DNA from: an uncultured Verrucomicrobiota bacterium
GTDB lineage: Bacteria > Verrucomicrobiota > Verrucomicrobiia > Palsa-1439
DNA length: 43,265 nt
NCBI GenBank assembly: GCA_964514435.1
Contig: CAZEQV010000001.1
Span: 1-43,265, forward strand
Reading direction: 5' to 3'
The notes beneath the pieces were generated by a model. That model saw nothing but the letters and a program-made list of their open reading frames with translations. It had not been told where the DNA came from and did not search any database. Shown here piece after piece: positions 1 to 39,449 of the stretch (position 1 is the first letter of the stretch; every line of letters starts with the position of its first letter). A program made the position numbers and the translations under genes.

Positions 1-2165
1 CTTTTCATACCAGCCCTGTCCCACACGCGCGCGTCTAATTCCGCGATGACCTTGCTGGTGTTGGCCGGTAACTTGACCGAATGGGTCTTGTCCAATGGAT
101 ACGCCCCGGTCAAAGAAAACAGGCCGAATCGGAGCGCACCGGAACAACTCGCGCCTTCGTTGACCCCGTAAATGCGCACGGCGTTGCCCTGCCGGGTGAC
201 GACGACAGTCACGGGTTGAAAAGCGCGCTTGACCGGCCAGAATGCCGGCGTGCGTCGCAGATAATAGTCCACCGTTGTCCAACTGCGCGTGCACGGCCAG
301 ACATCGTTGTACATCCAGAATATCGCCGAAGCGCTGTCGAACATACGGCGACGAAAATTCTTCACATATTCAGCGAGACCCGCGCCCTGAACCAGTCCGC
401 CCCAATAAACATAATCGTCAATGGTCATGTCCCGGACAACCTGGCCGGTCCAGTTCTCAATCATCTTGTCGGGCGCATACGGCGCCGTCCAATCCCAGTA
501 GCTGACGCTGTTCTCGTGCAATTCCCACTCAAAGGACCCAACCGTGCCGGTGCACGCCCGCATGGTCGGCAACGAGACGGGGCCGAGGATGCCGCCCTCA
601 TTAGGGAACCGGCAAATCAAGTTCCGGTACTTCCGAAAATCCGTGTCGTGAAACCCAATCGTCCACGGGTGTTGATCGCCGCGGTCGTCCAAGTTCGGGT
701 CATCGGCGGGATCCGGTGACATGGGCGAACTGGGATGAAAATACCGGGACGGATCCTCCTCGCGCATTAATCGCGGCAGGATTTGATGGAACAACGCATA
801 ATCAGGATGGGCCACGCCGGTATGATACCGCCAATGCCAGTGTCCCACTTCCATCTCATTGTTCCCGCACCAGATAATCAAGCTGGGATGATGCGCCAGA
901 CGGCGGATCTGATGCGTCGCTTCACGTTTCACATCGGCCAGAAAATCCGCGTCAATGGTCGGATACTTCGCGCAGGCAAAAATGAACTCCTGCCACACCA
1001 GAATCCCTTTCGCATCGCACAACTCGTAAAACGCGTCGCTCTCATACTGGCCGCCGCCCCAAACGCGCAGCATGTTGAAATTCGATTCAAGGGCGCGGTC
1101 CACCAGCGTCTCGTAACGCCTGCGGTCAATCCGCGACAAAATCAAATCTGCCGGCACGAAGTTGCCGCCTTTGCAAAAAATCGGTTTTCCATTGATCTCC
1201 ACAATGAAGAAACTGCCGGAGTCCGGATGCTTCTCCTGATTCACGCGAACATGACGGAATCCCACGCGCTTGGTGGCTTTCCCGATACCGGCCAACGACA
1301 CCGTCACGGTGTAACGCGGCTGCGCTCCGTGCCCCACCGGCCACCACAACTTCGGACGCGGCACGGTCACGGAAATCTCCAAGCGATTCGCGCCCGGCTT
1401 GATCTTGACCGGCAAGCGGTGCGTTTGCCCGGCCACCTTGATGGTCAACGTCGAAGATACCGGCTTGGCGTTGAGACCTTCGACAAACACGCGGGCTGTC
1501 ACCTTGCCGGATGAAAAATCTTCGGTCAATTCGCTGAAGACAGCGCAGCCATCCCAGCGAGCGGACCGGGCGATTTCCAAGCGGACGTGACCGGGAATGC
1601 CCACGTTGAGCAAGCGCGGCGACCAATCCCAACCGTGCTCGCTTTGCGTCTTGCGCAGCCACGGGCGTTTCGTCAGTTCGTGGCCGGGATTGACGTTGTA
1701 TCCCGCCCCCGACCGGTACGCGGCGTGAAACAATCCGCTTTCGACCTGAACGACCAACTGGTTCTCGCCCGACTTGAGATGCTCGGTCACTTCCACCCGG
1801 CACGGATAGAACGCGTTGGCATGACGCCCGACCTCTTTGCCGTTGAGGTGGATGACCGCCGCGTAATCCAGCGCGTCGAACACCAGCCACGCTCGCTCGA
1901 CGGGACGCAGTTTCGCGGCCGTGAACGAGCGGAAGTAATACCAATACGTTTCTTCAACCCACCGGCACTTCAACACATTGGCGCCCGTGTTCGGGTCGGC
2001 AATGATGCCGAGGTCAACAAGTGTCTCATGGACTGAGCCCGGCACCTTGGCCGGCCAGATGCGCTCCGCGGCAAACACACCGGCCACGATCCGTTGCAGA
2101 CGGTCGCCCCGCTCGCCATCGTTCCACCGCAACCTCCAGATGCCATCCAAATTGATCGTCTTCAT
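1..2165 (-). CDS. Glycoside hydrolase family 2, beta-mannosidase-like (C-terminus runs off the window at position 1)
   Basis: Absent from the ORF track because there is no stop in the window. Hand translation of the minus strand from ATG 2165..2163 gives MKTINLDGIWRLRWNDGERG... and stays open to position 1. GH2 hallmarks seen: PKLWWPVGHGAQPRY, FCKGGNFVPAD, NMLRVWGGGQYE, ILVWQEFIFAC, SLIIWCGNNE. The ATG overlaps the upstream glycerate kinase stop (ATGA). Confidence 0.85.
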   Translation of the reverse strand, partial: MKTINLDGIWRLRWNDGERGDRLQRIVAGVFAAERIWPAKVPGSVHETLVDLGIIADPNTGANVLKCRWVEETYWYYFRSFTAAKLRPVERAWLVFDALDYAAVIHLNGKEVGRHANAFYPCRVEVTEHLKSGENQLVVQVESGLFHAAYRSGAGYNVNPGHELTKRPWLRKTQSEHGWDWSPRLLNVGIPGHVRLEIARSARWDGCAVFSELTEDFSSGKVTARVFVEGLNAKPVSSTLTIKVAGQTHRLPVKIKPGANRLEISVTVPRPKLWWPVGHGAQPRYTVTVSLAGIGKATKRVGFRHVRVNQEKHPDSGSFFIVEINGKPIFCKGGNFVPADLILSRIDRRRYETLVDRALESNFNMLRVWGGGQYESDAFYELCDAKGILVWQEFIFACAKYPTIDADFLADVKREATHQIRRLAHHPSLIIWCGNNEMEVGHWHWRYHTGVAHPDYALFHQILPRLMREEDPSRYFHPSSPMSPDPADDPNLDDRGDQHPWTIGFHDTDFRKYRNLICRFPNEGGILGPVSLPTMRACTGTVGSFEWELHENSVSYWDWTAPYAPDKMIENWTGQVVRDMTIDDYVYWGGLVQGAGLAEYVKNFRRRMFDSASAIFWMYNDVWPCTRSWTTVDYYLRRTPAFWPVKRAFQPVTVVVTRQGNAVRIYGVNEGASCSGALRFGLFSLTGAYPLDKTHSVKLPANTSKVIAELDARVWDRAGMK

Positions 2166-3361
2166 ATGTGCCCGCTCTGATACTGGCAGAATGCTCCGGT
2201 GGCAAGACGTTCAACCGCCTGCGCCAACAATTGAGGCGCATCTTGCATCGCCCGCTCAACATCAACGCCTCCCTCCCGCAGCGACGTGACAGCGTCCACT
2301 CCGCGAGCCCGGCACTCATCTTCGGCGACCTCCACCGTTCCTGCTGCTACGGCCACGCGGACATGGTGTTTCTTGGCCAGACCCAATACGCCGAAAACCA
2401 CTTTGCCCCGCCAAGACTGGGAATCGAGCTTGCCCTCGCCGGTAAGAATCCAGTCGGCTCCGCGAACGGCGTCGAGCAAGCCGCTGGCCTTCATCACCGT
2501 TTCCACGCCGGAAACCAAACGCGCATCCAGGAACGCAGCCATGCCGGCCGCCAACCCCCCTGCTGCGCCCCCGCCCTGCAGGGCGAGAATGTCTTTGCCG
2601 AGTTGCGACCTAACGATACCGGCCAAGTGCCGCAATCCGCGATCGAGTTCCTGCACCATTTCCGGTGATGCGCCTTTCTGCGGACCGAAAACAGCCGCCG
2701 CGCCCGTGGGCCCGCACAACGGATTGTCCACATCACACAGTACCTCCACCCCCGGGAATGTGTATTTTGGTGGAATGATCATTCCGATAAATATCAGGTT
2801 CTGGCCGCCCAAGCCCACGTAACGACCGCTCCATTTCTTGGAATGATCATTCCTTAAAGTGTAATGTATGGTCTCATCAATGGAATGATCGTTCCGAGCG
2901 GTGAATCGCCAGCCAAGGGCGGTCGCAGCTCCAACACCCCCGTCTATCGTCGCGCTGCCGCCCACAGCTAATAGGATGTGTTCCGCGCCGTGCTTGATGG
3001 CGGCGCGCAACAACTGCCCCGTCCCGAATGTTGAGGTCAACATGGGGTTGCGCTCTTCCGGCTTCAATAACGCCAGTCCACTCGCGCTTGCCATTTCTAC
3101 AACAGCAGTTTTTCTGTCGGCCAACCAACCAAAACCGGATTCAATCTCCCGTCCCAACGGATCGAGCGCCCGTGACGGAATCCATTCACCATCACAAGCC
3201 GCGATCAATGCTTGCGCCGTTCCCTCGCCGCCATCGGCCATCGGTTTCTCAATGATCTCTGCTCCGGGAAATTTCGCTCGCAGCACCCCGGCGGCAATCC
3301 GGCACGCTTGAAGCCCAGTCAGGGTTCCTTTGAATTTGTCGAATGCGACAACAATCTTCAC
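2162..3361 (-). CDS. glxK: Glycerate kinase
   Basis: ORF 2162..3397. (V/M)KIVVAFDKFKGTL matches the usual MKIVIAPDSFKxS N-terminus of the family, so I prefer GTG 3361 (7 nt after the permease stop) over ATG 3397. Family motifs: PMADGGEGT, GGSATIDGG, CDVDNPLCGP, VFGPQKGA. Carries an unusual AT-rich patch with three palindromes (see findings). Confidence 0.85.
   Translation of the reverse strand: MKIVVAFDKFKGTLTGLQACRIAAGVLRAKFPGAEIIEKPMADGGEGTAQALIAACDGEWIPSRALDPLGREIESGFGWLADRKTAVVEMASASGLALLKPEERNPMLTSTFGTGQLLRAAIKHGAEHILLAVGGSATIDGGVGAATALGWRFTARNDHSIDETIHYTLRNDHSKKWSGRYVGLGGQNLIFIGMIIPPKYTFPGVEVLCDVDNPLCGPTGAAAVFGPQKGASPEMVQELDRGLRHLAGIVRSQLGKDILALQGGGAAGGLAAGMAAFLDARLVSGVETVMKASGLLDAVRGADWILTGEGKLDSQSWRGKVVFGVLGLAKKHHVRVAVAAGTVEVAEDECRARGVDAVTSLREGGVDVERAMQDAPQLLAQAVERLATGAFCQYQSGHI
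2772..2785. repeat. Intragenic copy A of palindrome GGAATGATCATTCC
   Basis: Exact 14-bp self-complementary match. Flanks (ATTTTGGT / GATAAAT) resemble the extended intergenic palindrome at 7624..7657. Read in glxK frame as G-M-I-I-P. Confidence 0.9.
2840..2853. repeat. Intragenic copy B of palindrome GGAATGATCATTCC
   Basis: Exact 14-bp match, 68 bp centre-to-centre from copy A. Read in glxK frame as R-N-D-H-S. Confidence 0.9.
2882..2895. repeat. Intragenic copy C, GGAATGATCGTTCC (13/14)
   Basis: One mismatch to the palindrome, 42 bp centre-to-centre from copy B. Same frame as copy B (R-N-D-H-S). Confidence 0.8.
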
Positions 3362-3368
3362 GCAGCCA

Positions 3369-4214
3369 TTATGAACGCCACCGCGCGATAAAAGCAATCA
3401 GCGCTATGACGGCGTTCACGGCCACGATTGTCGGTCCGGTGGGCAGATCGTACACGTAGGACAGCGAGACGCCGGCCAGTCCGCCGATCACGCCCACCGT
3501 CACACTGATGGCAAACACGGCGCGCATGTTGCGTCCCACCAGCAACGCCGTTGCGGCCGGCAAGACAAGGAAGCTGAACACCACCAGCGCACCGGCTGAG
3601 TTCGTGGATATGGATATGGTCACGCCGACAGACAAGAACAGGGCTGTGTTCCACAACCTGGCCGGCAATCCCTGCGCCGTCGCCATGTCGGGATCGAAGG
3701 ACGCAAACAGAACTTCCTTGTGAAACAGGCCATGCACGACTCCCAGCGCCACGGCCCAAGCCGCCAATCCCGCCACGCCGGTGCCGCTGATGGTGAGCAC
3801 GCTGCCAAACAGCAGGTTCAACACTTCCGCATGAACGTGCGCGCTGGCAGCCACCAACAAGATGGCGAGTCCGGCCGCCGTGGCGTAGGTGATGCCGATG
3901 AGTGTTTCGCGGGGCAGCCGTCGTTCCCGGTATTGCGCGGCCATCAACGCCGCCGCGACAAGAGTGAGCGCCAGGGCAAAGGGTTGTGGCGGGAAATGAA
4001 TGTCGCGGCCCATCCATTGCCCCAAGATGCCGCAGGTCACGAACGACAGCGCGACGCCCAGCGAACTCACTTGCGCCAATGCCGCCCCCACAAACACGGC
4101 GCGTCGCAGCACGATGAACACGCCCAAGAACGAGCACATCGCGGCCACAATCGCCGTGCCGGCCAGCACGTTCAGCATGAAATCCTGCCGCGCCATTTCC
4201 AACAGCGCGTTCAC
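3369..4214 (-). CDS. Metal ABC transporter permease (ABC-3 / ZnuB-MntB-TroCD family)
   Basis: ORF 3369..4307. Polytopic hydrophobic sequence, e.g. FMLNVLAGTAIVAAMCSFLGVFIVLRRAVFVGAALAQVSSLGVAL, typical of ABC-3 permeases. Start placed at GTG 4214, which overlaps the ATPase stop (GTGA). ATG 4196 is an equally plausible alternative. The upstream part of the ORF is Arg-rich and looks non-coding. Confidence 0.85.
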   Translation of the reverse strand: MNALLEMARQDFMLNVLAGTAIVAAMCSFLGVFIVLRRAVFVGAALAQVSSLGVALSFVTCGILGQWMGRDIHFPPQPFALALTLVAAALMAAQYRERRLPRETLIGITYATAAGLAILLVAASAHVHAEVLNLLFGSVLTISGTGVAGLAAWAVALGVVHGLFHKEVLFASFDPDMATAQGLPARLWNTALFLSVGVTISISTNSAGALVVFSFLVLPAATALLVGRNMRAVFAISVTVGVIGGLAGVSLSYVYDLPTGPTIVAVNAVIALIAFIARWRS

Positions 4215-5002
4215 GTGATCACCATCCGCTTGCCGGCGATGGTTTCGACGCGGACCGCAATGCCATAGACGGCGCTGAGAACCTCGCCGGTCAGGATCTG
4301 TTCGCATGTTCCCAGCCGGTAGTGGCCGCCATGCAGCAGCAGCAATCGCTGCGCGCTGTTGGAAAGCTCGTTCAGCCGGTGCGTCACATAGATGATCGTC
4401 ACCCCGCTTTCCCTCTGCAATCGGGAGATCAATTCCATGATGCCGCGTTGGCCCTCGATGTCCATGCCGTCGGTCGGTTCATCCAAGACAAGCACCCGCG
4501 CCTCGCTGGTCACCGCCCGCGCGATCAACGCCCGTTGTCTCTGGCCGCCCGACAGGTCGCGGAAGGGTTTGTCGCCCGCATCACCGATGCCGGTAAGCTC
4601 CATGGCCCGCTCGACCATTTCGTGATCGTGCGCGCCGGGCGGCTGCATCAATCCGAGCAAGCCATACCGGCCCATCAACACCACTTCGCGCGTGCTCAAC
4701 GGGAAAGCATCATCCAACGTCTGGCGCTGGGGAACGTATCCGAACCGCATGGGGACAGCGCCCGCGTGTTGTTCGATGCGTTGGTCGCCCGTGCCATCTT
4801 GCTCCGACAATTCATAGATGACCTTTCCTGACATAGGCGGCAACAAACCCAGCAGCACGCGGAGGATGGTGGTCTTGCCGGACCCGTTGGCCCCGACAAT
4901 TCCAAAGAATTCACCCTTCCGGATTGCAAAGCTCAAGCCAGACAACACGACGTGCCGCCTGTACCCGAGCGTCACGTTGTCGAATGTGACGGGTGCGGAC
5001 AT
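4211..5002 (-). CDS. Metal ABC transporter ATP-binding protein (ZnuC/MntA-like)
   Basis: Walker A GANGSGKTT, ABC signature LSGGQRQRALIARAV, Walker B VLVLDEPTDGMD. The ATG shares one base with the SBP stop (TAATG). Confidence 0.9.
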   Translation of the reverse strand: MSAPVTFDNVTLGYRRHVVLSGLSFAIRKGEFFGIVGANGSGKTTILRVLLGLLPPMSGKVIYELSEQDGTGDQRIEQHAGAVPMRFGYVPQRQTLDDAFPLSTREVVLMGRYGLLGLMQPPGAHDHEMVERAMELTGIGDAGDKPFRDLSGGQRQRALIARAVTSEARVLVLDEPTDGMDIEGQRGIMELISRLQRESGVTIIYVTHRLNELSNSAQRLLLLHGGHYRLGTCEQILTGEVLSAVYGIAVRVETIAGKRMVIT

Positions 5003-5892
5003 TACTTGAGCGCCTCGGCGATCCGGCGCGCTTGTTCTTGCAGCGCGGCGGCATAATGGCGCGCCGGTGATTCGCCCGCCAACGGTAGCGACACCACCTT
5101 GGCGCCCGTCTTGGCGGCGATCAGATCCGGCATGCGCCGCTCATACCAGGGCTCAAGAAGAATCAACCGGATGGATTCGGTTTTCATTTGCTCGGTCACG
5201 GCGGTGATGTGGGCGGGCGAGGGCGCGATGCCGGGCTTGGGCTCGATGGTGTTGGCGACCACCAAACCATAGCGGTCAGCCAGATACGTCAAACTGCGGT
5301 GGTAGGTGACGATCTTGGCGCCCCGGTAAGGCGCGAGTTTTGTCTGCGCTTCGCGGAACGCCGTTTCGATGTGTTGCAGCAACGCCGAAGCGTTCGTCTC
5401 ATACAGGGCGGCGTGACCGGCATCCACGACTTTGAGGCGATCGGCGACCGCGCGCGCGACCTGTTGGGCGCGGACGGGATCGAGCAGGTAATGCGGGTTG
5501 CCCATCGCGTGAACATCGCCTTGTGACCGGGTCACGGGGCCGGTGGGCACGTCCAGCGGCGTGACGTATTGGCTGGCGTTGATGCGCCCCGGTCGGCCCG
5601 GTTGGATGCGCGGGTTGCGCGTCTGCTCCAACAACGCCGGCAACCAGCCGATCTCCAGATCAAGTCCGACCTCGATCAACACATCGGCCATGTTCAACGT
5701 CACGATATGGCTCGGTTTGGCCTCGATGAAATGCGGATTTTCATTGGGCCGACAGATGCTGATGACCACCGCGTTCGAGCCGGCCACGTCGCGCGCCAAC
5801 GCGGCGAGGTCCGGTGTGGTGGTGACAATGTGGAGCGCGGCTTGCACCGCTGCCGGGCAGAGGGCCGCCAGTGGGATCAGGAGTTTGTTCAT
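5002..5892 (-). CDS. Periplasmic metal-binding protein, cluster A-I SBP (ZnuA/TroA/MntC family)
   Basis: C-terminal 297 codons of ORF 5002..6414. Starts at ATG 5892 with signal peptide MNKLLIPLAALCPAAVQA, then IVTTTPDLAALARDVAG...NPHFIEAKPS...VTYHRSLTYLADRYGL, typical of ZnuA/TroA-type SBPs. No long His-rich loop is visible, so the metal (Zn or Mn/Fe) is not assignable. Confidence 0.85.
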   Translation of the reverse strand: MNKLLIPLAALCPAAVQAALHIVTTTPDLAALARDVAGSNAVVISICRPNENPHFIEAKPSHIVTLNMADVLIEVGLDLEIGWLPALLEQTRNPRIQPGRPGRINASQYVTPLDVPTGPVTRSQGDVHAMGNPHYLLDPVRAQQVARAVADRLKVVDAGHAALYETNASALLQHIETAFREAQTKLAPYRGAKIVTYHRSLTYLADRYGLVVANTIEPKPGIAPSPAHITAVTEQMKTESIRLILLEPWYERRMPDLIAAKTGAKVVSLPLAGESPARHYAAALQEQARRIAEALK

Positions 5893-5902
5893 GGTTGGTT
5901 CC

Positions 5903-7195
5903 TCAAAACTTGTGCGCGGCGTGAGCGCCCAGCAGAAACTCCAACTGGAACCACACGCTGTGATCGGAGCCGATGCCACAACGATGATCGTAGTTGTATT
6001 GGAGCCGCAGTTTGCTGAACTCGGTCGGATACCATGTCGCATTCGGAGCGAGACGGCATCGTTCGCCACGCCAATCGGAATCGAACGAAGCTTCATCGCC
6101 GTTGGCGTATTCACCGCGGATACCGGCCACCCAGCCCCGTGTGAATCCCCACAACAACTGCGAATACAGGCCCCAGTCGCGCAGTGTTTCAGCCGGCAAC
6201 GGTCCGCTGCCATCTTCCGCCGGGCGCGCGGCGGCCTCATAGCGGCGATAGATGACCTCCGTCTGCCAACCCACGAACGGAAACCCGGCTCTTGCGTTTC
6301 GCGGTTTCCATTTCCAGTACACATCGCCGCCGTAGATTTGCGTGTCCGCACCGCTGCCGGAGTTGTTCGGTCCAAACGCACCGGACGCGCCGAGCAAAAG
6401 CGTCTGCGTGTCATGGATGTCGAAGGCTGTCACCAGGCGCGGCACATACAACAGATCGTTGAGACTATGCAGGCCGGTATCTTTAACGCGGCCGCCATGA
6501 ATCTCGGAAGACTCCTCCGACCGGAAACTAAATGCCGTTTCGCCGCTGCTATCAAACACACTCAACATCAACTCCGTGTACACCGGCCACGGCGCGAGCC
6601 AGGAGACCCGCGCGCCCGGATTGCGCAAACCGTCGGGTCCCATCAACCGCGTCACTGCGACCGGTTGATCCACGAATGCCCACGTGTGGTTGTGCTGCGT
6701 GTTTTGGCGGCCAAAATCGGCCAAGAACTGACCGGCCCGCAACTGCAAGTTGGCCGGCAAGGAGATGGTTTGCATCCATGCCTCCTCCAGTTCGATCTCG
6801 GTTTCGCCTTCCGGGCTGATCACCAATGTCAGCGTCGCCAACGCCTTGAAATACGGATCCACCGCGCCATCGAGCGTCACTTCGAGGCCGGTCAGATTGA
6901 ATCCGCGCCGACCGGGATCGTGGTGGGCGCCGTTGAGCGATTCAACGTCTTCCTCGGTGGACGTTCCGATGACGATGTCGCCCACGGCGCTGATGTTGAG
7001 ATAACTGCGGGTTGATTTCTCCGGTGACGTCGCCGGCTGGATTTCGGCTTCGGCGATCTTGTCCTGCAACTGCTTCATCTGCTGCTGGAGTTGCTGCATT
7101 TGCTGTTTGAGCAACTCCAATGATGTTTCTTCGGCCGATACAATGCTACCGGCCCACACAGCCGACAGCACAACGGCATATAACTTCACGTTCAT
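5903..7195 (-). CDS. Outer-membrane beta-barrel protein, porin-like, with N-terminal coiled coil
   Basis: Signal peptide MNVKLYAVVLSAVWAGSIVSA, Q/L heptad segment LELLKQQMQQLQQQMKQLQDKIAEAE, alternating beta-strand-like sequence rich in G/Y/W, and a C-terminal ...HKF (terminal Phe typical of OMPs). Strong SD AGGAGG 9 nt upstream of the ATG. Confidence 0.75.
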   Translation of the reverse strand: MNVKLYAVVLSAVWAGSIVSAEETSLELLKQQMQQLQQQMKQLQDKIAEAEIQPATSPEKSTRSYLNISAVGDIVIGTSTEEDVESLNGAHHDPGRRGFNLTGLEVTLDGAVDPYFKALATLTLVISPEGETEIELEEAWMQTISLPANLQLRAGQFLADFGRQNTQHNHTWAFVDQPVAVTRLMGPDGLRNPGARVSWLAPWPVYTELMLSVFDSSGETAFSFRSEESSEIHGGRVKDTGLHSLNDLLYVPRLVTAFDIHDTQTLLLGASGAFGPNNSGSGADTQIYGGDVYWKWKPRNARAGFPFVGWQTEVIYRRYEAAARPAEDGSGPLPAETLRDWGLYSQLLWGFTRGWVAGIRGEYANGDEASFDSDWRGERCRLAPNATWYPTEFSKLRLQYNYDHRCGIGSDHSVWFQLEFLLGAHAAHKF

Positions 7196-7264
7196 GGAAT
7201 GATTCCTCCTGCGACCGGTCGGGTCGCGTTAGTTTGAGTTCACGGTTTCGACTGATAGAGAGAG

Positions 7265-7552
7265 TCAGGCCGTGACTGGAGGAGCGCGGGCGGGAGCCGA
7301 TGGATCAACCTCGGCCGGCAAGCTTGAAGTGGTGACGACCGAAGATCTGCCATATTTGATCGGCGCCGAAGGCAGTTCTGAAACGGACGGTACTTCGGCG
7401 GTCGCGCTCAATTGCCAGACGCAGGCGACGCAATGGCTGGAATGACCGTGGACGGTGTGATCCTCGGAATCGTGGTGATGGGTGAAACCGAATGCTGTCG
7501 CCAACACGACATACAAGGACAGCGCCATCACCGTTGTCATCTGCCACAACAT
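7265..7552 (-). CDS. Small membrane-anchored His/Cys-rich protein (possible metal-binding; DUF2946-like by recollection)
   Basis: ORF 7265..7651 starts with TTG inside the palindrome. I prefer ATG 7552: MLWQMTTVMALSLYVVLATAFGF (one TM) followed by THHHDSEDHTVHGHSSHCVAC (7 His and 2 Cys in 21 residues). No convincing SD, so start and even coding status are uncertain. Confidence 0.55.
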   Translation of the reverse strand: MLWQMTTVMALSLYVVLATAFGFTHHHDSEDHTVHGHSSHCVACVWQLSATAEVPSVSELPSAPIKYGRSSVVTTSSLPAEVDPSAPARAPPVTA

Positions 7553-7623
7553 GACCGCTTGATACCGCACAATTCCCGCTCCGTCAATCCGAACAACCCC
7601 GCCCCCCCTCCTCGATTCACCCG

Positions 7624-7657
7624 GACATTTTGTGGAATGATCATTCCACAAAATGTC
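7624..7657. promoter_or_regulatory. 34-bp perfect palindrome; candidate operator (Fur/Zur-family-like) for the metal-uptake operon
   Basis: GACATTTTGTGGAATGATCATTCCACAAAATGTC. All 17 base pairs checked by hand; symmetry breaks at 7623/7658. AT-rich, 20 nt downstream of the DUF1573 stop and about 70-95 nt upstream of the first gene of the metal cluster. The palindrome is certain; the function is inferred. Confidence 0.55.
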
Positions 7658-7677
7658 GGTAGTTGACAGGAAGACGG

Positions 7678-8679
7678 TTATTTGTGGGGAGTGCCGATTT
7701 GGATGGTGACGGGCACGGCTATGGTCGGTTGTGACTCAGCGTTGGTTTCAAATGCCACCATGCCCATCAGCGTTTTGGGGGGAGGATCGCTCAGTGTGGC
7801 CACGATTTCGTACTTTCGGTCTTGCTCCAGCGCTCGAAGCTCGACGGTCACACGATCCACTGTGCTGGTGACGTTTCGCACCGTGAAGGGGCCGGGCAAT
7901 CGAGGGGCGCTCACGACGACCTTGCGTTCCGCGGCCGGACCGCGAACGGTGCCGCCACTGCCCGGCAGGCTCCAAAACAACACCGCAGGCGACCAGATTA
8001 CGTCTCCCACTACACGCCCGGTAATCCAGATTGTCAGGGAGGGTTTGACCGGGTCGTCGGTGTGAATCTTCAGCGATTCGTTGAATCGGCCCAGTTGGGT
8101 GTCCGCCGGGAACTTCACGCGGATGCAGGCTCGCGATGGATCGTTGTTCACTGGTTCCACAGTTGCTTTGATGGTTTTGCGGCTTGGGGCTGTCTCACTG
8201 ATGACCAAGGGCGCGCCGTCCAATCGGCGCACTTCCACGGTCACATTCGTCAGTTCACCTCGGCCGATGTCGCCGAGAAGAATGTCGCGGGGCGCGGCTT
8301 CATACAGAGCCGGTATCTTTACGCGGCAGGTCAACGTGGCGCGGGGTGTGACGGGGTCGTTGGAGCCGAGCGTCAGACTTGAGACCACCAACCCGGTGGT
8401 ATCGCCGAGGTTGATGGAGAAGCTCAGCGGGGTGGAGGCGCCCGGTGCGATCTCCTTTTTCTCCACGCTGGCGCGCGTGCATCCGCAGGAAGTTCCGATG
8501 CCATTTATGATCAATGGCTCATCGCCGGTATTGCGGACGACGAACGATCCTGTCACCGATTGTGCGCCTGATGTTGTGCCGAGGTCGCAAGTGGTGTGGT
8601 CGAATTCGATGCGCGGCGCGGCGCTGGCGATTTCCCCGGCAAGGCAGGCAAGAACCAGCAGTGTGAAGATCGTCTTCAT
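7678..8679 (-). CDS. DUF1573 domain-containing secreted protein
   Basis: Signal peptide MKTIFTLLVLACLAGEIASA, then FDHTTCDLGTTSGAQSVTGSFVVRNTGDEPLIINGIGTSCGCT (DUF1573 signature with a CGC motif), then further Ig-like beta-rich sequence. Confidence 0.8.
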   Translation of the reverse strand: MKTIFTLLVLACLAGEIASAAPRIEFDHTTCDLGTTSGAQSVTGSFVVRNTGDEPLIINGIGTSCGCTRASVEKKEIAPGASTPLSFSINLGDTTGLVVSSLTLGSNDPVTPRATLTCRVKIPALYEAAPRDILLGDIGRGELTNVTVEVRRLDGAPLVISETAPSRKTIKATVEPVNNDPSRACIRVKFPADTQLGRFNESLKIHTDDPVKPSLTIWITGRVVGDVIWSPAVLFWSLPGSGGTVRGPAAERKVVVSAPRLPGPFTVRNVTSTVDRVTVELRALEQDRKYEIVATLSDPPPKTLMGMVAFETNAESQPTIAVPVTIQIGTPHK

Positions 8680-8701: not shown

Positions 8702-10726
8702 TCAGCGTATGGCCACCAGCATCACTTGCAGTGGTTCCAGTGTGGTCTGGGCGCCGACGGTGCGACCGCTCAAGAGATCCTTGCCGGACTTCTTCAATGT
8801 GATCGTTTGCTCGGACTCGGTGATGTTGACGATGCCGTAGCCGGCCACTTGGCCGGTAGCGTCGGCGCGGGGCACCACGATCACGTTGCCGGAACCGGTG
8901 GCGACCGGCTCGACGCCGGCTGCGGTGAGGATTTGTTTCACCAGCTTCAGGTGAACGGACTCGTTGACGGCGCAACCGAGCGTGGTGACGGTTCCCTTGC
9001 CGAACTTGTTTCGCACGATGGCAACGTGGTCGTTGCCGTAGCCGCCCCGGTAATGAGCGAGCGCTTCGCCAGTGGTGCAGCGGAATCCTTCACACCAGTT
9101 GCGGGTGCGGGTGGTTTCGCCGTCGGCAAGCTCGACGGTTACGCGGTCTTCCATCCAATGGACGGTAAAGCGCAACGAACTCTCAGCACCGATGAGTTCT
9201 TCGAGTCCGCCAAACTCACGGTCGCGCCAAGCTGTGAATTCCTCCGTGCGGTAGCCGGTCAGCGGACCGAGTATGAGGTGTCCGCCTTGCCGGACCCAGT
9301 CGCGCAGCCGTTGCTTGGTGGCTTCTTTGACGATGGGCATCAGCGGCAATACCAGCACGCGATACCGGCTGAAGTCGGCGTCTTCGCCAATGACATCGCG
9401 CCAGACATGGTTTCGCGCCAGGCGCAGGTAATGATCTTCGCGCCAGCGGACTTCGTAGCGCATGTCGTCGTCAATCGGATCAATGCTGAACGCCCAAGCG
9501 GCTTCGTTGCTGAGGACGATGCCGACCTGGGCTTGTTGCGGGGGATGATCGAGAAGCCAGCGACCGTGTTTGGCGCAGTCGGCGCAGAGCTGGGCGAGCG
9601 CGTTTTTGTTGGGACGCCATTTGCCGGTCGCGGTGACGAGCGTGCCGTGCTGCATTTCCTGACCGGCCCAGTGTTCGCGCCATTGCCAGTAAAGAATCAT
9701 CGAGCCGCCCATCAAGTGCGACATCCAGCTCATCGCGAGGATACCGTGTTCGTCGTGATGAATGTTCCATTGCTTGCCGCCGCCGGACCAGTTGGGCGCA
9801 GTTTCCAGCAGCCAATAGGGCGCCGGCTTCTCGGCGCGCATCCGGTCGAAGTTCTGCCAGTTCCAGTGATAATGGTTCACGTCGCGGTACATGCTGAATC
9901 CGACCCGGTCGAGCAGCCGGTTGTGTTGGAACCAGTTCATGCCCAGACCCGCTGTCATGTTGGTGGTGATGGGTTTGTCGGAATGCTGGCGGATGATGTC
10001 GCACTGAAGTTTGATGAACGAAGTCCACGCCTCGTTGTTATAACGTGAGACGGCCATGACCAAGGAAGGGTTGTGGCGTTCGGGCACCTCGATGGAGCCC
10101 ACGGCGGCCACAGGCATCGGCACTTGATCGAAGGATTGATACGCCTGGCTCCAGATTTCCAGACCCCAGGCCTTGTTCATTGCCTCGACGGTGCCGAATT
10201 TTTTATTTAGGTACTCACGGAATCCTCGTTTGGCTTCGTCGCCGTAATCGTTCGATGCCATTTCATTGTCAATCTGCCAGGAGTGCAGTGCGGGATGACC
10301 GGAGAACGTCTCGGCCATCTTGCCGACAATCTTGGCGCACAAGGCCCGGTACGTCTGGCTGTACACGGAGTAATGTTTGCGGCCGCCATGCGTGGCGCGT
10401 TTGCCGTCGGGGTCGGTCCGCAACACATCCGGGTACTTGGTCGTCAACCAAGCCGGTGGGGCGGCGGTGGGTGTGCCGATCATCACGGCGATGCCGGCTT
10501 CGGCGCACAAATCCATCACGCGCCGCGCCCAGTCGAAATCATACTGGCCTTCTTCGGGTTCGAACTTGTGCCAGGCGAACTCAAACATTCTCACGATGTT
10601 GAATCCGATCTCGGTCATGCGGGTGATGTCGCGCGGCCATTCCTCGGCCGGCCACATTTCAGGGTACCAGCTCACGCCAATCAGAAGTTTCTCGTCGTGA
10701 TTTTTGTCAGAAGGAATGTGGATCAT
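8702..10726 (-). CDS. Beta-galactosidase, glycoside hydrolase family 42
   Basis: LIGVSWYPEMWPAEEWPRDITRMTEIGFNIVRMFEFAWHKFEPEEGQYDF, acid/base region WQIDNEM, nucleophile region YWLLETAP. At 674 aa, the length is typical of GH42. Confidence 0.9.
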   Translation of the reverse strand: MIHIPSDKNHDEKLLIGVSWYPEMWPAEEWPRDITRMTEIGFNIVRMFEFAWHKFEPEEGQYDFDWARRVMDLCAEAGIAVMIGTPTAAPPAWLTTKYPDVLRTDPDGKRATHGGRKHYSVYSQTYRALCAKIVGKMAETFSGHPALHSWQIDNEMASNDYGDEAKRGFREYLNKKFGTVEAMNKAWGLEIWSQAYQSFDQVPMPVAAVGSIEVPERHNPSLVMAVSRYNNEAWTSFIKLQCDIIRQHSDKPITTNMTAGLGMNWFQHNRLLDRVGFSMYRDVNHYHWNWQNFDRMRAEKPAPYWLLETAPNWSGGGKQWNIHHDEHGILAMSWMSHLMGGSMILYWQWREHWAGQEMQHGTLVTATGKWRPNKNALAQLCADCAKHGRWLLDHPPQQAQVGIVLSNEAAWAFSIDPIDDDMRYEVRWREDHYLRLARNHVWRDVIGEDADFSRYRVLVLPLMPIVKEATKQRLRDWVRQGGHLILGPLTGYRTEEFTAWRDREFGGLEELIGAESSLRFTVHWMEDRVTVELADGETTRTRNWCEGFRCTTGEALAHYRGGYGNDHVAIVRNKFGKGTVTTLGCAVNESVHLKLVKQILTAAGVEPVATGSGNVIVVPRADATGQVAGYGIVNITESEQTITLKKSGKDLLSGRTVGAQTTLEPLQVMLVAIR

Positions 10727-37112: not shown

Positions 37113-39449
37113 ATGACATTCCCCGTGAAGAATTGGATGCGCCCGCTTGCCGTCTTTCTGGCCGGCGCGGCGATGCTCGCGTTGGCAGGATGCGGCGGCT
37201 CCGCCGACCCCGAACAGCGCCGCGCGGCCGCATTGATTGATCAGCTTTCCGAAACCAAAGTGGAAAAGCGCGTGACCGCCGCCACGGAACTGGGCCGGAT
37301 GAAATATCGTGCGGCCGTGCCGCATCTGATACGGGCCACGGCTGATGTGCGCGCCGAGGTGCGGTTGGCGGCCATTGAATCGCTCGGTGAGATCGGTGAT
37401 CAGAAGGCCGTGGATGCTTTGGTGGCCGCGCTCAAATCGGATCTGTGGACGCAACGAAAAGCCGCCATCGAAGCGCTGGGCAAGCTCGGCGATGCGCGTG
37501 CCTTGCCGGCCCTGAGCGCCTTGTTCACTGACAACGACCGTTCGGTGGCGGCGGCGGCCAGCACGACGGTGGGCGGGTTCGGCCCGGTCGCGTTTGAACC
37601 GATGATGGAGCGGTTGCAGTCACCGGAGCCGATGACGCGCGAGGGTGCCGCGTTGGCGCTGGGACGCATCGGAGACAAGCGCGCTGCCGAGCCGTTGCGG
37701 GCGATGTTGAAAGACCCGGAACCGTTGTTGCGGCTGGCGGCAGCCGACGCTCTGAGCCGGTTGGGTGACGCGGGCCCGGTCGGTGACATGGCGTTGTTGC
37801 TGCAAGATTCCAATGAGACAGTCAGCCGTGGGGTGAAACGGTCGTTGATACGGTTGGGTGGGGAGGCCGTCGAGGCCATCAGCCGTGTGGCTTCGACGGC
37901 ACAACCCGCGACGCGGTTCGCCGCCGTGGAAGTACTGGCCAACATCAACGACCCGCGCGCCGTGGCGGCGTTGCTGGTGATGTTGGATGACGCCGACCGC
38001 AAAGTCGCCGCCGCGGCGGATGAAGCGTTGAGAAAATCGGAAGCCGGCAAGTCGGTGGACGCGTTGCTGCTGACGTTGAAGAGCAGCCAGCCGGCCGCGC
38101 GACGTAAGGCGGCGGCCATGTTGGGCGAGGTGGGCGACGAGAGAGCCGGTGAAGCGTTGATCGGGGCGTTGGCGGATACCGACAGCGGCGTGCGGACGGC
38201 GGCGGCGCGCGCCCTGACGGAACGGAAAGATCCGCGGGCGGCTGATGCGTTGGCCGGTATGCTCGCGGACCGGGATTGGGGCGCGCGGTTGTCCGCAGCG
38301 GAAGCGTTGGCGGCGCTGGGCGACACGCGGTGCGTGGAGCCGCTGATCGAGTTGCTGAAGTCGAACGCCGTGGTGACGGACGAGAAAGGCAAGGAACAGA
38401 CGAGCAGCGTGCCGATCCGGGCGGCGCGCGCGCTGGGAGTGGCGCGGGACAAACGCGCGGTCGGACCGTTGCTGGCGGTGGTGCAGGCGGAGTTGGACGA
38501 GCCGCAGCCCGCCGGCAAGGACGCGCGCGATGGCAACAATGCGTTGAGCGCCGCCGCGGCGGGTGCGTTGGGACAGATCGGGGACGAACGGGCGTTTGAG
38601 GCGCTGGTGCGGTTGTTGGAGAAGCGAAGGTGGCCGGAGGTTTCCATTCGCGGCGCCGCGGCGCGGGCCTTGTTGGAGATCAACCCGCAGCGGGCAGCGG
38701 AGCCGTTGATGGCCACCATTGCCAATCCCGAATTTCAGGATCCCGGCTTGAAACGGCAGTTGATCGGGATGCTGGGAAAGACGCGCAATCCCAAGGTGGT
38801 GGACACGTTGATTGCGCACCTGACGTTTGAGGAACGCGAGACGCGATTGGCGGTGGCCAGCGGGTTGGTGGAGATCGGCGAACCGGCCATACCGGCTTTG
38901 GTGGCGCAACTCGGTTCCACGAACGAGCAATTGCGGGTCGGCGTGGGGCTGGTGTTGGCGCGGATGGGGCCGAGGGCCGAACAATCCCTGCTAGCGGCGT
39001 TGAAAGACAAGGACGCGCGAGTCCGTCAATCGGCCGCTTGGGCGATCGGACGGTTGGGCAAGGTGGAAAACGCGCCGGCCGTGGCGGCGTTGCTGGCCGA
39101 CTCCGACACGAATGTGCGGACGGGCGCGATTTGGGCGTTGGGCGAGTTGAAGGACAAGCGGGCCGTGCCGGCTTTGTTGCCGTTGCTGAATGATTCGGAG
39201 ACGCTGGTGGTGCGCGGCACAGCGGAAACGTTGGGGAAGATTCAAGATCCTGCCGCCGTGGAGGCGCTGGTTTCCGTCTTGCGGCATCCGCAGCCCGACG
39301 TGCGCATTTCCGTGGCCATCGCGCTGGGCGCGCTCGGCGATGCGCGCGCGGTCAAAGCCTTGCAGGAATTGGCGTCTTTCGATACTGACAATGAAGTCCG
39401 AATGGCCGCCAAGGAAGCCCTGGGGTTGATTGGACAGAACAAACCGTAA
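37113..39449 (+). CDS. HEAT-repeat (PBS-lyase HEAT-like) lipoprotein
   Basis: Lipobox LALAGCGG. About 20 or more repeats of the pattern VRxAAxxALGxxGDxRAVxxLxxxLxD across 778 aa. Confidence 0.85.
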   Translation: MTFPVKNWMRPLAVFLAGAAMLALAGCGGSADPEQRRAAALIDQLSETKVEKRVTAATELGRMKYRAAVPHLIRATADVRAEVRLAAIESLGEIGDQKAVDALVAALKSDLWTQRKAAIEALGKLGDARALPALSALFTDNDRSVAAAASTTVGGFGPVAFEPMMERLQSPEPMTREGAALALGRIGDKRAAEPLRAMLKDPEPLLRLAAADALSRLGDAGPVGDMALLLQDSNETVSRGVKRSLIRLGGEAVEAISRVASTAQPATRFAAVEVLANINDPRAVAALLVMLDDADRKVAAAADEALRKSEAGKSVDALLLTLKSSQPAARRKAAAMLGEVGDERAGEALIGALADTDSGVRTAAARALTERKDPRAADALAGMLADRDWGARLSAAEALAALGDTRCVEPLIELLKSNAVVTDEKGKEQTSSVPIRAARALGVARDKRAVGPLLAVVQAELDEPQPAGKDARDGNNALSAAAAGALGQIGDERAFEALVRLLEKRRWPEVSIRGAAARALLEINPQRAAEPLMATIANPEFQDPGLKRQLIGMLGKTRNPKVVDTLIAHLTFEERETRLAVASGLVEIGEPAIPALVAQLGSTNEQLRVGVGLVLARMGPRAEQSLLAALKDKDARVRQSAAWAIGRLGKVENAPAVAALLADSDTNVRTGAIWALGELKDKRAVPALLPLLNDSETLVVRGTAETLGKIQDPAAVEALVSVLRHPQPDVRISVAIALGALGDARAVKALQELASFDTDNEVRMAAKEALGLIGQNKP

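Follow-up and report, generated by a model that had tools for sequence, protein, structure and literature searches.

Four copies of a conserved palindrome, three of them in frame in a glycerate kinase gene, as putative protein-binding sites in a Verrucomicrobiota metal-uptake operon

We analyzed a 43,265-nt stretch of DNA from an uncultured Verrucomicrobiota bacterium (the window, a complete NCBI contig: CAZEQV010000001.1 of assembly GCA_964514435.1), in which the 14-bp palindrome GGAATGATCATTCC occurs four times. Three copies (A, B, and C) lie in frame inside glxK, the glycerate kinase gene, and the fourth forms the centre of an intergenic palindrome, P. All four fall within one minus-strand gene string, which comprises a small His-rich open reading frame (ORF), the gene for an outer-membrane protein, znuA, znuC, znuB, glxK, and a GH2 gene (Table 1). 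Comparison with a sister lineage indicates that the peptide encoded by the glxK patch is nearly free to change and that the DNA cores are not. We propose, at about even confidence, that the copies are conserved, lineage-specific putative protein-binding sites in one operon, B and C having arrived with an insertion and A by recoding, and that the intragenic trio would serve as a roadblock or auxiliary operator set and P as an insulating site.

Four copies of one palindromic element

The 14-mer is a perfect even palindrome, GGAATGA followed directly by TCATTCC (7-0-7). Copies A and B and the core of P (7634-7647) match it exactly, and copy C (GGAATGATCgTTCC) matches at 13 of 14 positions. When up to two mismatches were allowed, four motif matches were found in the window against 0.21 expected, and none of 100 shuffles got to four. 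Furthermore, a repeat search that was blind to this finding grouped A, B, and P as one 31-nt family, and no further interspersed repeat family was detected in the window. Copies B and A are 84% and 82% identical to P (reverse-complement alignment), and they have flanks in common with it too. The likeness between the flanks of copy A and those of P, noted in the original prediction, is thereby borne out and extends to copy B. The flanks of copy C are not element-like. On sequence grounds, the 14-mer is the core of an approximately 30-bp palindromic element, CATTTTG-N-GGAATGATCATTCC-N-CAAAATG (as a search pattern, CATTTTGNGGAATGATCATTCCNCAAAATG), which provides a concrete motif with which to search a little-studied Verrucomicrobiae-like lineage for a regulon.

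Within glxK, the copies are spaced by 42 and 68 bp, with all three sites inside 125 bp, approximately 4.8 kb downstream of P. The patch around them (2760-2899) has a G+C fraction of 0.443, compared to 0.58-0.66 in the neighbouring segments (background, ~62%). Translated from the coding (minus) strand, copy A gives GGA ATG ATC ATT CC (GMIIP), and copies B and C give (A/C)GG AAT/AAC GAT CAT TCC (RNDHS); the remaining third frame of the palindrome would give TGA. The positions of the copies, the G+C content (put at about 44% by hand count), and the use of the two stop-free frames had all been described correctly in the original prediction.

Three JGI contigs (L208-L210), which are 99.9% identical to the window, add 7.8 kb past its left end, and no further copy was found there at up to three mismatches. 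Past the right end, a 2-kb contig was the only extension. The copy count covers the window plus the 7.8 kb: in these ~51 kb of genome, the element is present at two loci, both in one operon, with four copies in all.

A three-mismatch match, GGAATGATTCCTCC, lies at window positions 7196-7209 and is kept in the sister lineage. On the coding strand, it coincides with the stretch (GGAGGAATCATTCC ATG) that carries the ribosome-binding site for the outer-membrane protein, and it is probably chance plus Shine-Dalgarno sequence. Tandem duplication was rejected as the source of B and C, since beyond the 14-mer the units agree at 5 of 12 positions only. Sites of the parS, Noc/SlmA, and loxP/hix recombinase types were considered and dropped as improbable. 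The sequence is unlike parS, and a recombinase would have no direction to follow at a centre that is fully symmetric. A literature search for the 14-mer sequence itself found no report.

Conservation of the copies and the loop in GlxK

The sister lineage is represented by two contigs (L001 and L216; ~90% DNA identity) from JGI sample 3300054704, and it carries all four copies at the same positions. Between the window and the sister, there are 2 differences in the 56 core bases and 18 in the 91 bases of intergenic DNA outside P (Fisher p = 0.0056). Both core changes fall at the symmetric position 5/10, one in the window's copy C and the other in the sister's copy B. The arms of P, CATTTTG and CAAAATG (7 nt each), are identical in the sister, and positions -1, +1, and -9 are changed. 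The predicted operon promoter is also kept.

As a whole, glxK is under purifying selection, with a ratio of nonsynonymous to synonymous substitution rates (dN/dS) of 0.16 between the two lineages; the ratios of its neighbours are 0.12-0.19. In codons 153-200, dN/dS is 0.88 compared to 0.11 in the rest of the gene, and dS is 0.22 compared to 0.51. Moreover, 30 of the 32 codons for identical residues in the patch are also identical in DNA (gene-wide, 257 of 346). The near-neutral peptide, the halved dS, and the unchanged codons together point to conservation at the DNA level.

The original prediction had placed B and C in an extra stretch of 18 to 20 residues, with the conserved GLGG between A and B. 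Indeed, the GlxK alignment revealed an insertion of 21 residues, NDHSIDETIHYTLRNDHSKKW, flanked by the ALGW-F segment on one side and GLGG on the other. This insertion holds B and C, and GLGG is placed between B and A. Among ~8000 GlxK homologues, only the window's protein and cluster P0002 (86% identical, as is the sister's GlxK) are 399 residues long in this way; the closest GlxK after P0002 is 59% identical. In an AlphaFold model run with the GlxK alignment, the predicted local distance difference test score (pLDDT) was <50 for residues 170-190 of the 411-residue ORF, which correspond to the insertion, and the fold around them was confident. According to this model, the insertion carrying B and C is a disordered loop.

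Copy A is of another kind. Its residues line up one by one with those of the ancestral I-x-x-I-V-P-P segment, so that it represents no insertion, and the segment was modelled as a beta-strand (E204-208) with a pLDDT of ~92. Where the closest insertion-free orthologue (L206; NCBI GCA_900118435.1; 59% GlxK identity) has ATC GCC GCC ATC CTT CCG TCC AAA, the window has ATC GGA ATG ATC ATT CCA CCA AAA. Thus, 9 of 24 bases are changed, giving the perfect core and part of an arm in the sequence space that the protein allows. The original prediction of in-frame, repeat-like insertions in a surface loop, to be checked by aligning orthologues and modelling the structure, accordingly fits B and C, whose stretch is specific to the window and its sister and forms a low-pLDDT loop. 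It does not fit copy A, which overlies a confidently modelled ancestral strand, no residues having been replaced by an insert.

Variable in-frame insertions just past the IVPP strand were also seen in GlxK of other lineages (P0024, P0028, P0035, P0038, P0041, P0046, and P0058), approximately 10 residues further on than the window's. In one of them (L211, 10529-10711, encoding P0038), the insertion consists of GC-rich hairpin repeats, with related intergenic copies at 7546-7586, 7639-7665, and 9927-9984. These in-frame repeats suggest that this part of GlxK repeatedly takes palindromic DNA in frame.

Possible regulators and competing explanations

TTTNNTGGAATGATCATTCC was matched 60 times when 185,579 species genomes were scanned, and none of the matches came from the window's lineage. 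Approximately 25 of the 60 represent the acyl-CoA dehydrogenase coding motif FFGMIIPKxYGGLGFS in unrelated bacteria (L123, L124, L126, L132, L134, L136, L141, L147, and others). The 14-mer can thus arise just from coding GMIIP, and this coincidence is a trap for cross-genome motif searches. In viral contigs, the matches listed were single and scattered. Intergenic matches to the extended palindrome adjoin a conserved 193-aa TetR-family gene (TetR_N/TetR_C_13) in six genomes; the hosts are Acinetobacter (two sites), a Burkholderiaceae metagenome-assembled genome (MAG) (two sites), Pseudomonas, and Halomonas/Vreelandella. An NAD-binding oxidoreductase and a major facilitator superfamily (MFS) transporter are encoded nearby. 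The TetR-linked palindrome, (CT)GGAATGATCATTCC(AG), was located at L178 5582 and 6241, L140 5737 and 6402, L151 3671, L163 2349, L131 5926, and L171 3938. In L130, two adjacent palindrome copies occupy 4022-4055.

In Proteobacteria, the 14-mer is probably the operator of this 193-aa TetR-family regulator, which makes the window's sequence plausible as an operator for a helix-turn-helix dimer. The proteobacterial sites have the identical GGAATGATCATTCC, promoter-type positions, and one or two sites per locus. They differ in their CT...AG flanks (CATTTTG arms in the window), in their oxidoreductase and MFS transporter neighbours, in phylum, and in having an adjacent regulator gene, of which the window has none within 51 kb. 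In the window, the family of the regulator cannot be told from the motif alone and may be TetR-like, LacI/GalR-like, or Zur-like. The arms GTGGAAT...ATTCCAC of P also resemble operators of the GalR/LacI type with a 2-bp longer centre. We take this as no more than a lead, and these flanking bases are not conserved among the copies.

In the reading we favour, the element would be recognized by a single helix-turn-helix DNA-binding protein of this lineage, bound as a dimer or as a dimer of dimers. From znuA through GH2, the genes overlap or are 7 nt apart and leave no intergenic space, so that the sites would have had to go into coding sequence. Two of them would have been delivered by the 63-nt in-frame insertion in the disordered GlxK loop, and copy A would have been superimposed on a tolerant beta-strand via A/T-rich codons and conservative substitutions. 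The bound protein may act as an intragenic roadblock and/or as a loop anchor paired with P, and so might control the share of metal-uptake transcription that enters the distal half of glxK and GH2. At P, it might block read-through from the upstream GH42-DUF1573 genes. A bolder version, in which selection wrote an operator into the protein and the three glxK sites and P enclose the metal-uptake genes and control the passage of transcription into distal glxK-GH2, is possible but doubtful. If the sites are functional, they would represent natural dual coding, in which the loop would exist because the DNA beneath it is regulatory and the motif, not the peptide, would be conserved. They would also show how a tightly packed operon gains internal control points.

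Several points weigh against this proposal. A roadblock halfway along glxK would cut the glxK mRNA short, which is odd if GlxK is needed, and concerted evolution among selfish repeat copies could also keep the cores alike. The conservation statistics come from one sister lineage with small counts, the 7+14+7 split of P was picked after the data had been seen and is indicative only, and the copy number is that of ~51 kb of the genome. P and the predicted core promoter do not overlap. No regulator gene, Fur- and TetR-family genes included, was found in the 51 kb. A promoter and terminator consensus scan of 2000-8000 gave nothing in the patch or at P, and around the patch it predicted no sigma-70-like promoter on either strand. 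An antisense TTGGAA-N16-TGTAAT at copy B, spotted by hand, fails the scan criteria and is not relied on. Of the operator cluster originally suggested, the part that stands is that the cores are conserved in the sister and that no other copy is present in ~51 kb; the internal or antisense promoter for GH2 was not borne out by the scan.

The lineage-specific 63-nt insertion with its loop of pLDDT <50 is also what would be expected of a repeat of the repetitive extragenic palindromic (REP), miniature inverted-repeat transposable element (MITE), or Rickettsia palindromic element type. Such a repeat would be selfish or neutral and without function, copied locally, with one or two copies in frame in the GlxK loop and another behind DUF1573, and would have lasted for being harmless. 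We regard this, the main rival, as unlikely, though far from negligible, and a REP- or MITE-like origin of the insertion as plausible. P is a perfect hairpin (-37.8 kcal/mol for an 81-nt stretch, z = -5.5) at a typical REP position, 20 nt past a stop codon. In copy B, the entire 32-nt element and not the core alone is present in diverged form, and the sister's peptide YTLRNDRSTKC resembles the frame-3 translation of P, ILWNDHSTKC. The in-frame insertions ~10 residues on in GlxK of other PVC (Planctomycetes-Verrucomicrobia-Chlamydiae)-type lineages, and the intergenic recurrence of the L211 repeats, fit a hotspot, and in-frame palindromic elements, including prokaryotic MITEs, have been reviewed (PMC10969869). 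However, the element is found at two loci only, in one operon, in ~51 kb, whereas the L211 repeat recurs three more times within 21 kb. Its A/T richness in a genome of 61% G+C sets it apart from the GC-rich REP-like repeats of relatives. Copy A is no insertion, the four cores are kept in the sister although their surroundings have diverged, and neither terminal inverted repeats nor a target-site duplication were seen at the junctions of the insertion, the boundaries of which are ambiguous by a few bases. The two explanations are compatible: a mobile palindrome could have brought sites that were later kept. Even as nothing more than a tolerated repeat, the element would mark the loop region of GlxK as a place where palindromic DNA has landed repeatedly in several lineages.

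A more specific proposal, and an improbable one in our view, takes P as the Zur operator of a zinc-uptake operon and the glxK copies as extra Zur boxes. Besides ZnuC and ZnuB, the products of the operon include a ZnuA/AztC-like binding protein, an outer-membrane protein, and a small protein rich in His, and the 30-bp palindrome would suit two dimers. P shares with Fur-family boxes its A/T-rich palindromic sequence and its location in the 5' region of an operon for Znu-type metal uptake, and intragenic binding sites with cis-repressive effects have been documented for Zur of Bacillus subtilis (PMC4324032). Overall, genomic context is the sole argument in favour of Zur. The substrate-binding protein scores below the cut-off for both the zinc and the manganese families, so that not even the metal is certain. 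Fur-family boxes have a 7-1-7 geometry around a central unpaired base, in contrast to the even 7-0-7 symmetry found here. P ends 36 bp upstream of the -35 box, off the promoter conserved across orthologous operons rather than over it. In at least 20 of these operons (L183-L205, L206, and L212-L214, from a metagenome scan with the outer-membrane protein plus three further relatives), no upstream motif match at up to three mismatches and no comparable palindrome was found, even in Verrucomicrobiae with 58-68% identity in the outer-membrane protein. Phylogenetic footprinting thus reached no further than the sister lineage. A classical Zur box is accordingly not supported, and a literature search for Zur boxes in Verrucomicrobia found none. 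The same 14-mer goes with TetR-family genes elsewhere, and on all these counts the original assumption of a Fur-family regulator is not supported. Regulation at the RNA level, in which the copies, complementary to themselves and to each other, fold the polycistronic mRNA into hairpins or long-range duplexes and so set its processing, stability, or translation, we consider very unlikely. The P hairpin is indeed very stable, and the fold of the glxK patch pairs the copies with each other (z = -2.0; 7 of 200 shuffles fold as well). But P, being upstream of the predicted promoter, would be in RNA by read-through only, lone intragenic copies are limited to 5-bp stems, and the sister's changes at -1/+1 of P break a pair without compensation. 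Rfam and tRNA scans gave no match, and there is no U-tract. It is scarcely probable that the inserted loop, RNDHSIDETIHYTLRNDHSKKW (7 Asp/Glu/His in 21 residues), binds metal, as might suit a GlxK expressed from a zinc-uptake operon, and that the DNA palindromes are incidental. The loop is His/Asp/Glu-rich in both lineages, and glxK is fused to znuB in three lineages. Nevertheless, the loop is near-neutral, with one His replaced by Arg in the sister, and the same DNA in another frame (A) and in noncoding sequence (P) argues for a DNA repeat.

Intragenic auxiliary operators include lac O2 in lacZ, gal OI in galE, the PurR site in purB, and CcpA cre and CodY sites in coding regions. As in these cases, the candidate sites lie in coding sequence downstream of a promoter and repeat a palindrome of the operon's 5' region, and the protein must tolerate the imposed codons. 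The window differs in having three sites in 125 bp, two of them via a dedicated in-frame insertion. Moreover, the sites belong to the sixth gene and are separated by 4.8 kb from the upstream site, which is itself off the promoter, and the binding protein is only putative. Roadblocking by LacI and its rules have been documented (PMC4132739). The element also resembles Rickettsia palindromic elements, MITEs, and the GC-rich GlxK insertions, in that a palindromic element that is also intergenic is translated as an extra, poorly structured loop of a conserved enzyme. It differs from them in its very low local copy number in one operon, its A/T richness in a G+C-rich genome, the one copy that is no insertion, and cores that are conserved between lineages instead of decaying. 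Both intragenic operators and in-frame palindromic elements are known already; new is their combination, with evidence for selection on the DNA and not on the peptide.

Organization of the operon and its neighbourhood

Table 1. Features of the window and their counterparts in the sister lineage
Feature	Position	Strand	Description	Sister lineage
Copy A	2772..2785	none	Exact 14-bp palindrome; extended element ~2764-2794; encodes GMIIP on the minus strand	Exact
Copy B	2840..2853	none	Exact 14-bp palindrome; extended element 2832-2862; RNDHS, inside the insertion	GGAATGATCgTTCC
Copy C	2882..2895	none	13/14 (position 10 A to G, plus strand); RNDHS at the upstream junction of the insertion	cGAACGATCATTCC
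P	7624..7657	none	Perfect 34-bp palindrome, GACATTTTGT-GGAATGATCATTCC-ACAAAATGTC; 20 nt past the DUF1573 stop; 36 nt upstream of the predicted -35	Core exact (14/14), within GGCATTTTGaGGAATGATCATTCCgCAAAATGTC
In-frame insertion NDHSIDETIHYTLRNDHSKKW	2831..2893	-	63 nt, 21 codons; boundaries uncertain by a few bases	Present; window lineage and sister only
Operon with all four copies	3..7552	-	From the His-rich ORF to GH2; GH2 runs off the window	
Predicted operon promoter	7559..7587	-	TTGACG (7587-7582), 17-nt spacer, TATCAA (7564-7559), 6 nt to ATG at 7552	
GH42	8702-10726	-	Upstream gene	
DUF1573	7678-8679	-	Upstream gene, before P	
His-rich ORF	7265-7552	-	95 aa, CxxCxW motif	
Outer-membrane-type protein	5903-7195	-	430 aa, no Pfam family	
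znuA	5002-5892	-	Best NCBIfam match AztC, below cut-off	
znuC	4211-5002	-		
znuB	3369-4214	-		
glxK	2162-3361	-	399 aa; Pfam Gly_kinase E = 4e-122	
GH2	3-2165	-	Start overlaps the glxK stop	
Contig L001				znuA-znuC-znuB-glxK-GH2
Contig L216				GH42, extra gene, DUF1573, P, small ORF, outer-membrane protein

The order of the small CxxCxW ORF, the outer-membrane protein gene, and znuABC is kept in orthologous operons of other Verrucomicrobiae and on Gemmatimonadota-type contigs. Six orthologous operons share a common promoter layout: TTGAC(A/G/T), 17 nt, TAnnnn, and ~6 nt to the start codon. The operon promoter in the window was predicted from this conservation. Its position only ~6 nt before the start codon suggests a leaderless transcript. 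The centre of P lies ~88 bp upstream of the start codon.

The small CxxCxW ORF loci are at 7265-7587 in the window, L183 ~790-1125, L206 5495-5927, L212 7516-7911, L213 7602-7889, and L214 ~7440. The outer-membrane-type proteins of the orthologous operons have ~430-480 aa and no Pfam family, and the nearest named relatives of the window's protein are from Verrucomicrobiae MAGs. The gene downstream of glxK was confirmed to be GH2, as originally predicted. The glxK start lies 7 nt past the znuB stop, and the same spacing was found in the window (3361-3369), the sister (L001, 2884-2892), and L206 (9993-10001), which suggests that glycerate kinase is a long-standing member of the metal-uptake operon.

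Past the left end of the window, a gene for a heavy-metal P-type ATPase (HMA, E1-E2_ATPase; L208, 13656-15734) is convergent to GH2, so that a metal-export gene adjoins the metal-uptake operon. It is followed by an Ldh_2 gene and a gene for a hybrid histidine kinase. In the sister lineage, an extra 436-aa gene (L216, 926-2236) with no Pfam match lies on the opposite strand between GH42 and DUF1573; it is not in the window. Finally, seven diverged 42-nt units at window positions 37477-39273 correspond to HEAT repeats of a 778-aa protein encoded at 37113-39449.

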